DNA of 64,000 nt from assembly GCA_032718475.1 (NCBI GenBank), contig JAUCBJ010006679.1, forward strand, positions 1-64,000, in the 5' to 3' direction. The notes below the pieces were generated by a model. That model was not told the origin of the DNA, searched no databases, and saw only the letters and a program-made list of their open reading frames with translations. A program made the translations under genes and the position numbers. Shown one piece after another: positions 30,801 to 33,800 of the stretch. The first letter of the stretch is position 1; each line of letters begins with the position of its first letter. The DNA is from Nemertoderma westbladi. Lineage: Eukaryota; Animalia; Xenacoelomorpha.

Positions 30801-33800
30801 CATTCAATGGACTGGGGGCGATTTATGGGCGAATATTGGGGCGACTTACGGGGTACGGGACTCATTTCATGTATTTAAGGGCCAGGGGTGGAAGGAAAAG
30901 TTAAGCAGTATTCAGGTTTGCCTGATTACTATTAGGCCTAGCCAACTTCCTGCTGCCTGTAGAGGTGGATTTGGTAACTCGCTAGGTCTAAAGGACAAGG
31001 ACTGCCCTTAGCGGTCCCTGGCCAACAGCAGTTATTACGAGCCTGAATAAGGACTCGGAAAGTCTGCTGCTTGTGTCAGGGATTGGCGACGGGAACCGAC
31101 GACAGACCCCTAGCCAAGCCGTACTGGTTCCTGATGACCGATCCCTTCAGGGTTCGGGAAGGGTGGGATGGACACGCGAACGGGTCGACCGACTAACGGA
31201 AGAAGGGTTCGACGAGGACTGCCTTCCTGGAGTGGGTTCCATGACCGGCGTTAGTACGAGCCTGAATAAGGACTCGGAAAACCACCAACCGTTGAGGCTC
31301 ACGACGGGCTGACAGACCCCTAGCCAAGCGTACTGGTTCCTGATGACCGATCCCTTCGGGGTTCGGGAAGGGTGGGACGGACACGCAACGGGGTCGAAAG
31401 ACAAAGGAATAGACTCTACTGGCCTACCGACTGTTCGGAGCAGCTTCTCGGCCGCCGAAGCGACTACGAGCCTGAATAAGGACTCGGAACTCCTAGGTGG
31501 TTGGGTCCCTGCGATGAACCAACGGACCCCTAGCCAGGCCGTACTGGTTCCTGATGACTGATCCCTTCGGGGTTCGGGAAGGGTGGGACGGACACGCAAA
31601 CGGGTCCACCGACACGACAGACCCCTAGCCAAGCCGTACTGGTTCCTGATGACCGATCCCTTCGGGGTTCGGGAAGGGTGGGACGGACACGCAAAAGGGT
31701 CGACTGACGCCGACACTATGGTACCGAGACTAGGACCGGGGGAAAGTTGGGGAACATTAGTTTGTCTAAAATCTGAGCGAACAGTGGGTAATTAAATAAT
31801 GTACTGTAGGGATTTATATTGTCGTGTTATATTATTGTTAATATTTGGTGTATATTGGTTTGGGGTAGCCCAATTTATTCTCAATCAAGGTTCAACTGTA
31901 GGGAAGTTACATTAAAGACTATATCCAACCAATGAAACTTTTCTCAACTGCAACCTTGCATTTAAGAACGTATTCCTTCTCCACTACCAATATCCGGTGA
32001 CTGGCCGGGATTCCGTGGTCTGAAAAGTTCCACCTCCAGCATCGGCGTTTTTCCCCCATGGTGTCGGGAATAACGGCAACAAAATTGAGAATAAGACGCG
32101 GCCAACTTCAACTGGTGGAAGTTGGGAATCCTACAATACTCTTCAAACTCTCTCCGTGCTTACCCAGCACCCACTACGAGGAAACTCTGGTATTTGATTT
32201 AAGACAAAGCCGTGGTTTAATCAATCGAATTCGAATTTCGAAATCGGACTCAAATTAAAAAACTCGTAGTCGGCAGATCACATAAAGAGAGTCGTTAAAC
32301 AGGGAATGGAAGTATCGATCACACCCATTGATATAATCCAAGTTGAGCCAGGAATCTGGCATGTCGAAGTTGAAGTACAAGGAACAAACGTTGGACGATT
32401 CAGGATTACCGTTTGGGTAGTCCAGGCTGAGTACGAGACATACGAAGAACTATTTTACGATATCGCATATCTAGCTATCAACGAGGTGCTAGAATGATGA
32501 CGAATAACGTCTCCGACACCAATGAGATGGACCCCCACACAGACTCGGAGGCCGACGAGGTACCGAACGTCAAGAATATGACCCGTCGACTAGGCGCTCT
32601 CAAAGGCTGAGTCACTCGAGCATATCAACGTATAGAGAAACAACTAAGGGGAGTCGAAACACCCCTCAATGAGATACAGACTCAGCTACAAAATATCCGA
32701 AGTATCTTACAACGATATGAGAGGATGATACAAGCATATCAAGAGCTCATCCCCGCCACTGATCAGGTAAACTAACCCAGACTGGAAGAACACGCTGTAC
32801 ACCTAGATGAGTTCCGCAAACAACATCGGAGGACCCTCAGCCTCGTGAGAGGCTATGAGGAACAGTACTATAAGAGAATGGAAAGAACAGACGCAGAATC
32901 AGTGCGGACCTCCAGCACCAGGGCAGCAATTCATCGAAAGAGAATGGGGTCCTCGAGGCACCAGCACTCCAGCACTAGGAGCGAGATGCCTGGTTCAGCG
33001 CATAGTTCTCAAGGGGGCCAGCCACTCCGAGATCAGCTTCGAGAACAGAGGGCATTGGCCCTTAAAGCTCGAATGGAAGACGAATATGTTCAACTACAGA
33101 TCAAACAGGATGTATTGGCAGCCGAAATGCAAAAACGAGAGGCCAAACAACAGGCCGAACAACGTAAACGAGAGGCCGAACAACAGGCCGAACAACGTAA
33201 ACGAGAGGCCGAACAAGAGGCCGAACAACGTAAATGAGAGGCCGAACAACAGGCCGAACAACATAAACGAGAGGCCGAACAACAGGCCGAACAACGTAAA
33301 CGAGAGGCCGAACAAGAGGCCGAACAACGTAAACGAGAGGCCGAACAACAGGCCAAACAAGAGGCCGAACAACGTAAACTAGAGGCATAAATGCGTAAAC
33401 AACATGCCGAGGCTCAAGCGATTCTCATCCATAAAAAGAATGCGGATATTGCGAAACTCGCGGAATACGAATATATGAGGACGGGGAAAGGGGTATAGAA
33501 CAGAACTATGAATCAATCCCGGTCCCGGAATTAGAGAAGTCATTTACGCCACCGGCAGCAAAACCTCCGAAACCCGAGTTCCCGCCAACCATACAGTCTA
33601 CGTTATCGGCAAAAGCACCGGTATTCCATCCCCCACCGGTTACGCTTAAGAATGAGGAACCTTATTTCCCATCCAACCCCACGGTACCGAGCGTTCCCAA
33701 GTACGAGCCTGAAAAGGACTCGGAACGGGACGCCACCCCTCGATCCAACAATCCATTTACATCCACACCACAAATCCGTAACCGTGTCATCATTAAACCT

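Follow-up and report, generated by a model that had tools for sequence, protein, structure and literature searches.

Organization of the Locus

The 64-kb stretch of DNA analyzed here (the window) carries a decayed BEL/Pao LTR retrotransposon, designated the main element, at positions 30693-47197. Its features, like those of the nested insert and the second element described below, lie on the forward strand. The 5' LTR (30693-32081; 1389 nt, TG...CA) was delimited by self-comparison and alignment; its true start at 30693 is located 6 nt before 30699, the start used in one of the shuffle runs. The 3' LTR (45869-47197) is 3.0% diverged from the 5' LTR and lacks the 61 nt equivalent to 31840-31900, a segment that includes the LTR-internal 11-mer discussed below. 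It is preceded by a polypurine tract of seven G residues (PPT, 45860-45866), then AC. The target-site copies, 5 bp long, read GTAAC on the left (30688-30692) and ATAAC on the right (47198-47202), with one mismatch between them. The main element, hence, displays the end features of the BEL/Pao group, i.e., TG...CA LTRs, a PPT and a target-site duplication.

The insertion took place in an array of a 23-bp satellite. Long arrays of this satellite occupy 28997-30692, 47195-51533 and 56401-59807, and a 1069-bp segment beside two of them is duplicated at 98.8% identity (51534-52602 and 59808-60872). Copies of a non-LTR-type reverse transcriptase element with RVT_1 and DUF6451 domains were found at 53737-55095 (reverse strand) and 2693-5226. 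Inside the 5' LTR, the region 31031-31701 holds a module of approximately 220-250 nt in three to four copies, along with a 95-nt tandem repeat; these are probably U3 enhancer repeats.

Pfam searches of the main element recognized, in this order, DUF1759, zf-CCHC (weak), Peptidase_A17, Integrase_H2C2 and DUF5641. The DUF1759 segment (34002-34331) belongs to a gag disrupted by stops and frameshifts, the RT/RNase H segment (38913-39968) was found by means of Peptidase_A17, and the integrase zinc finger, core and DUF5641 (40454-41848) are split between two frames; the protease was recognized by eye, as a motif only. The order of DUF1759, zinc knuckles, Peptidase_A17, Integrase_H2C2 and DUF5641 therefore assigns the main element to BEL/Pao, and PF05380 was present in all 68 matches to its RT/RNase H. 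In a quick tree with no non-BEL outgroup, the RT/RNase H grouped, on a long branch, with BEL/Pao proteins; it was placed apart from the insect proteins and together with those of corals, flatworms and ribbon worms (SH-aLRT 85).

Between pol and the 3' LTR there is an extra ORF (43267-44757), open for 496 amino acids, with no Pfam match and no credible match among solved structures. An Atlas search gave a lead, and no more than a lead, to WRN-like exonucleases (0.85, below 0.9), and a zinc-knuckle-like frame follows the ORF within the region 43267-45283. DEDDy ORF3s are reported for rotifer LTR elements in the excerpted text of PMC5408684.

The gag of the main element is interrupted by a nested 5'-truncated insert (34504-37165), whose terminal part comprises a hairpin, a PPT and a distinct LTR (LTR-C, 36626-37165). 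Also located within the insert are purine-rich tandem arrays and, near 35162-35176, another PPT-like stretch. The insert is missing from other copies of the element, in which contigs join about 34503 directly to 37165. LTR-C is 70% identical to the LTR (15641-16223) of a second, truncated element at 15641-16232, which has no Pfam match and is BEL-like by a gag motif seen by eye only. Among 18 of the 141 loose contig ends, one passed the end of LTR-C into a PBS-like start resembling that of the second element; the LTR interior of its family was not covered.

The Primer-Binding Position Matches the Element's Own LTR

A sequence-only reading of the window had pointed to the lack of a tRNA primer-binding site (PBS) in the main element and to the pairing of the PBS-position sequence with the LTR. 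Both observations were confirmed when the sequence was re-read. The LTR end at 32081 is followed not by TGG but by the spacer AA (32082-32083) and the 11-mer ATTGAGAATAA (32084-32094), the exact reverse complement of TTATTCTCAAT (31875-31885), the candidate 3' end of a self-primer. Each of the two 11-mers occurs once in the window, and a 12th pair is possible in the form of one U-G wobble (31874/32095). The landmarks of the same reading were also found in place: TATATT at 31851 and ATTAAA at 31911, as well as TATTTAAG at 30872 and ATTAAA at 31791, which it had offered as another promoter/poly(A) layout. By the definition in the available part of PMC6317226, a self-primer has an LTR complement no shorter than 10 nt that begins 0-5 nt past the 5' LTR; the main element has 11 nt at offset 2.

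The 2-nt spacer had also been proposed to mirror the PPT-AC-LTR arrangement at the other end. This holds for the main element but not as a general rule, as the PBS spacer ranges from 2 to 5 nt among relatives that share this PPT-to-LTR junction, and a general symmetry of the two spacers was rejected. The PBS-position sequence starts with AT in the main element and with GT in the relatives.

A match of at least 11 nt at offset 0-6 was reached in 6 of 5000 dinucleotide shuffles (run on 30699-32081), in 4 of 5000 when only the last 400 nt were used, in 3 of 3000 block shuffles, and in 7 of the 1958 internal windows taken as mock sites. One of 1000 shuffles reached it when the true LTR was used and the offset limited to 0-5. 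The probability of the match arising by chance is thus about 0.001-0.004 (about 0.1-0.4%). In the second element, the self-complementarity is weaker, as previously noted: a 9-nt core (16000-16008) is complementary to 16224-16232 at offset 0, a match reached in 46 of 5000 and 13 of 1000 shuffles. Its pairing runs further upstream of the core (z -5.4 versus shuffles).

The contigs aligned to the window represented DNA only, and three of four runs (from two studies) covered the LTR end and the leader. The summed depth there was very high, which indicates that the family of the main element is abundant, depth not being equal to copy number. Among 40 of the 76 substitutions, none fell in 31840-31934 or 32059-32094 and no compensatory change within the family was seen; G32095T, at the first base past the core, accounted for approximately 27-35% of the depth in three runs. 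The 61-nt deletion of the 3' LTR was not among the contig joints listed and the segment was deeply covered, so the 5' LTR form looks typical. In some contigs of two runs, the 15-nt stretch spanning the LTR end and PBS (32080-32094) was doubled, and the 22-23 other letters between the copies could fold back over the LTR end.

The Pairing Recurs in Related Families

Relatives were retrieved via an RT/RNase H alignment search; the best 80 of 561 confirmed stretches, all from metagenome contigs, were combined with five from genome contigs and represented 52 families at 85% identity. No relatives were found among the viral contigs scanned. The LTRs of nine relatives were delimited mainly by comparing the 5' and 3' copies, the ends of those in L008, L016 and L040 being set partly by eye. 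L013, with only 135 nt of LTR and belonging to the same family as L012, was left out.

In eight of the nine relatives, no TGG starts directly at the LTR end, and in L027 a TGG begins one base in. The search for a contiguous complement gave 10 nt in L012 and only 5-8 nt in seven others, in several of which the partial match begins right behind a pyrimidine-rich AG. When one GT-AG intron was allowed, each of the seven yielded a full complement of 10-12 nt; the introns measured 77-371 nt, and GTAAGT was among the donors. L081, which starts with TGG and has no complement, groups with insect elements. This BEL element (L081:7055-13034), complete and of the insect type, has a TGG-type PBS. The record in which it lies bears the title of a Wolbachia endosymbiont genome, and the element represents either a host-derived insertion or assembly contamination.

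The specificity of the pairing was analyzed in a swap test of 11 elements, in which the PBS-position sequence of each was compared with the LTRs of the others under strict splice signals. The element's own LTR gave at least 9 nt in 10 of 11 cases, the swapped pairs in 7 of 110, and six of these seven occurred among L066, L040 and L016, which have nearly the same PBS. For the 10 positive elements, shuffled PBS sequences reached the observed length at most three times in 300. With loose splice signals (any GT, any AG), the swapped background rose to 24/110 at 9 nt or more and 12/110 at 10 nt or more. In an earlier set of 29 hand-picked stretches, several of them badly placed, strict filters left 11 with a complement of at least 10 nt and removed two real cases.

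A scan of one candidate per family was then evaluated, in which no known LTR ends were used, a GT within 5 nt of ACA or ATA was required, and the best candidate of each family was taken, the same rules being applied to the null. It was evaluable in 36 of the 52 families, the remaining 16 having no upstream sequence. A complement of at least 10 nt was found in 26 of the 36, of which 18 were spliced and eight contiguous; the 40 shuffled replicates of the null gave a mean of 2.3 and never more than 6. The 10 misses comprised L081 of the TGG type, L076 with 9 nt, three contigs without a recognizable LTR and five whose LTR is incomplete; in four of these five, one half-site is visible by eye. The families are only partly independent of one another, given that similar datasets contributed many of the loci.

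The comparison across families proposed in the sequence-only reading, hence, came out in its favor. The letters of the PBS vary between families, the pairing is kept in those 26, and according to the swap test each PBS matches the LTR of its own family only. The end of the perfect core, nearly always AC, lies 0-5 nt away from the LTR end, and this is where the end of a primer must sit to regenerate U5.

Removal of a Predicted LTR Intron Completes the Complement in Most Families

In the 18 spliced families, the complement appears only after in silico removal of a GT-AG intron from the LTR. Such a complement, which exists solely once the exons are joined, speaks for the RNA level. L009 has a complete 5' LTR with the junction already joined, and the alignment with its sibling L002 begins precisely there, where L002 has an acceptor (L009:131-740 versus L002:1-460). 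The donor of L002 lies outside its contig. Judged from these sequences, the pair fits a precise intron loss that would have occurred through spliced RNA. In the quick tree, the contiguous state appeared in at least three places among the spliced families. The contiguous L058 is sister to the spliced L052 (SH-aLRT 99), the letters having changed in both arms, and the protein of the main element groups with that of L012, also contiguous (support 95, long branch).

In folding models of short leader regions after in silico splicing, the helix probability reached 0.84-0.97 in four of six relatives, compared with 0-0.11 in the unspliced forms; for L040 and L008, splicing brought no gain (0.46 versus 0.57 and 0.01 versus 0, respectively). 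A possible 81-nt GT-AG intron of the main element, just upstream of the 11-mer (31788-31868), was considered and rejected: the energy was -22.7 kcal/mol for the spliced and -24.3 kcal/mol for the unspliced form, and other upstream donors scored better. The predicted LTR intron at L051:178-216 is just 37 nt long.

Position of the Complement in the RNA

A candidate poly(A) signal, ATTAAA (31911-31916), is located 25 nt past the LTR-internal 11-mer. Similar hexamers were found downstream of the core in all six spliced relatives checked, 13-126 nt past the acceptor, and in six of the eight contiguous ones. The core would therefore lie in R, provided that transcription starts upstream. The TATATT at 31851, put forward earlier as the promoter box ahead of the 11-mer, is indeed present, but it is one of three choices, since TATATT boxes at 31815, 31828 and 31851 (31815-31856) precede the 11-mer by 60, 47 and 24 nt. 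TATA-like boxes 49-59 nt upstream of the core were found in five of the eight contiguous relatives.

To detect an extension of the pairing, the 30 nt upstream of the core were tested against the 32 nt past the PBS core, with z below -1.65 versus shuffles as the threshold. Such an extension was detected in 10 of 28 elements, the second element of the window included. In the main element, the pairing did not reach further upstream (z 0.1), so that its RNA may start close to the core. The predicted probability of its helix depended on the RNA start, being 0.91 for 31875 and 0.92 for 31857, and lower for 31877 (0.39), 31845 (0.15) and 31760 (0). In its predicted fold, the core helix closes a multiloop and the sequence past the PBS forms a local hairpin.

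If transcription started as in Tf1 of fission yeast, exon 1 of the spliced families would be just 4-8 nt long. Because of this, of the TATA-like boxes 49-59 nt upstream and of the extended pairing in 10 of 28 elements, a primer made strictly of the RNA's first 11 nt is unlikely to be general among the relatives. In many families, the primer fragment would probably be longer than 11 nt.

Discussion

The BEL/Pao group studied here is likely to be self-primed, since most of the related families share a match to their own LTR, often only across a predicted intron. We estimate the probability that reverse transcription is primed by the element's own RNA, in a Tf1-like manner and often with a splicing-built primer, at roughly 0.65. 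Such priming had been suggested for the main element in the sequence-only reading; the lack of a tRNA site and the pairing of the PBS with the own LTR gained comparative support, but the intron-split complement of most relatives had been missed. A broader version, in which self-priming is lineage-wide, the primer is built by the spliceosome in most families and the main element is an intron-less derivative, has in our judgment even odds.

According to the proposed mechanism, the likely PBS at 32084-32094 would be bound by the element's own RNA instead of a tRNA. RNA derived from the LTR, with the core (31875-31885) presumably in R, would be cut just past the paired segment, and its 3' end would start minus-strand DNA. 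By analogy to Tf1, in which RNase H cleavage gives the primer (accessible parts of PMC7175516 and 10.1101/2022.12.06.519325), RNase H may make the cut. The strong-stop DNA could then jump via the part of R that extends from the cut to the poly(A) site. In the spliced families, the intron would be removed from the cap-proximal copy and the exon junction would complete the primer. The intron could survive in the progeny only if the 3' copy of R stays unspliced or if the primer comes from another RNA molecule. Under the lineage-wide version, only the spliced cap-proximal copy would prime and the unspliced 3' copy would pass the intron on; a possible benefit is that the latter would be unable to compete as a primer. 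Occasional copying of a spliced 3' R might produce the contiguous, intron-less state (main element, L012, L009 and others).

The strongest alternative, which we regard as unlikely though worth serious attention, is that R and the PBS pair to form a conserved RNA structure acting in packaging, dimerization, translation control or masking of the primer site, and that something else, e.g., a host RNA or a protein, primes. Retroviral leaders form U5-leader stems, a precedent for such a structure. In favor of this view, the pairing often exceeds the core, and in several families, unlike in Tf1, it probably begins away from the cap. Such a stem, however, has no need for a perfect core ending so close to the LTR end, nearly always in AC. 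Moreover, no other primer site is visible, a TGG is lacking and the letters vary by family.

Priming by the element's own sequence could alternatively proceed in trans, with a separate short LTR transcript (e.g., from solo LTRs) being spliced and then cut or trimmed to the duplex. This would reconcile the intron kept in the progeny with a primer that needs splicing, and it would agree with the poly(A)-like hexamers that follow the acceptor in all six spliced relatives checked and with the great abundance of the family. We nevertheless consider the supply in trans improbable: the cis pairing is predicted to form readily, and the exonuclease-like ORF, itself just a lead, is known from the main element and not from the relatives.

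It is very unlikely that a half of a host tRNA or another small RNA primes and that the LTR complement is secondary. Half-tRNA priming is described for some copia lineages in the consulted part of PMC6317226, and the tRNA search covered the 64-kb window, in which no tRNA was found. Here, it would call for a different RNA in nearly every family, each copied into the LTR of that family and often across an intron. No Rfam match was found at 31700-32400, a search of low power. Chance, which could be invoked for a single 11-mer noticed after the fact in an AT-rich LTR, is hardly credible in view of its low calculated probability and of the recurrence in 26 of 36 families, and was effectively refuted by the swap test and the per-family scan.

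If priming by the element's own RNA is confirmed, self-priming would have arisen or persisted in a third LTR superfamily, splicing would be a required step in making a primer for reverse transcription, and an intron that is needed in spliced form would nonetheless persist through an RNA intermediate. It would also explain why LTR finders see no PBS in the BEL/Pao elements of this clade. The reading makes exact and cheap predictions for junction reads and for the 5' and 3' ends of the RNA.

Comparison with Known Systems

The main element shares with Belpaoviridae (Semotivirus) a Gag with DUF1759 and zinc knuckles, the PR-RT-RH-IN order, the Pao peptidase A17 and DUF5641, as well as TG...CA LTRs, a 5-bp target duplication and a short PPT. 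It probably belongs to the aquatic Sinbad-type lineage, the Sinbad/Sailor label being based on the grouping by host and on the available text of PMC554778 and PMC6238403 rather than on named reference sequences. According to the ICTV profile of the family, the PBS is 18 nt long and complementary to the 3' end of tRNA-Arg or tRNA-Gly, a host tRNA primes replication, and the replication process is poorly understood (PMC8742986). In contrast, no TGG follows the LTR of the main element, and most of its nearest relatives likewise have no tRNA PBS; its LTR of 1.39 kb also exceeds the 0.2-1.2 kb listed there. The words PBS, primer binding, tRNA and priming are absent from the text of PMC554778 and PMC3118150, and PBS and tRNA from that of PMC6238403. 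Our literature search, conducted outside subscription journals, Repbase and GyDB entries and supplements, returned no report of self-priming or of a primer LTR intron in BEL/Pao.

Self-priming is described for Tf1/sushi elements and predicted for the plant elements Tcn1 and TAR (partial texts of PMC6317226, PMC7175516, PMC6934838 and bioRxiv 2022.12.06.519325). For Tcn1 and TAR (Houba, Osr-1), which are plant gypsy and copia elements, the prediction comes from the same kind of LTR-PBS complement, and no primer intron is mentioned in the consulted part of PMC6317226. The closest parallel is offered by Tf1/Tf2 of Schizosaccharomyces pombe, which, like the main element, have no tRNA site and an 11-nt PBS complementary to their own LTR RNA. 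Tf1/sushi elements are, however, Ty3/gypsy chromoviruses, whereas the main element is a BEL/Pao element with DUF5641 instead of a chromodomain past the integrase, as Pfam searches indicated. The two flanking duplexes of the Tf1 'pretzel' are not clearly present in its predicted fold. The Tf1 primer consists of the 11 bases with which the RNA begins (excerpts of PMC7175516), whereas in many families of the BEL/Pao clade the complement probably starts downstream of the cap. Finally, in contrast to Tf1, the complement is split by a predicted LTR intron in most of the BEL/Pao relatives, and the splicing step that this would entail is possibly unprecedented for self-primed LTR reverse transcription.
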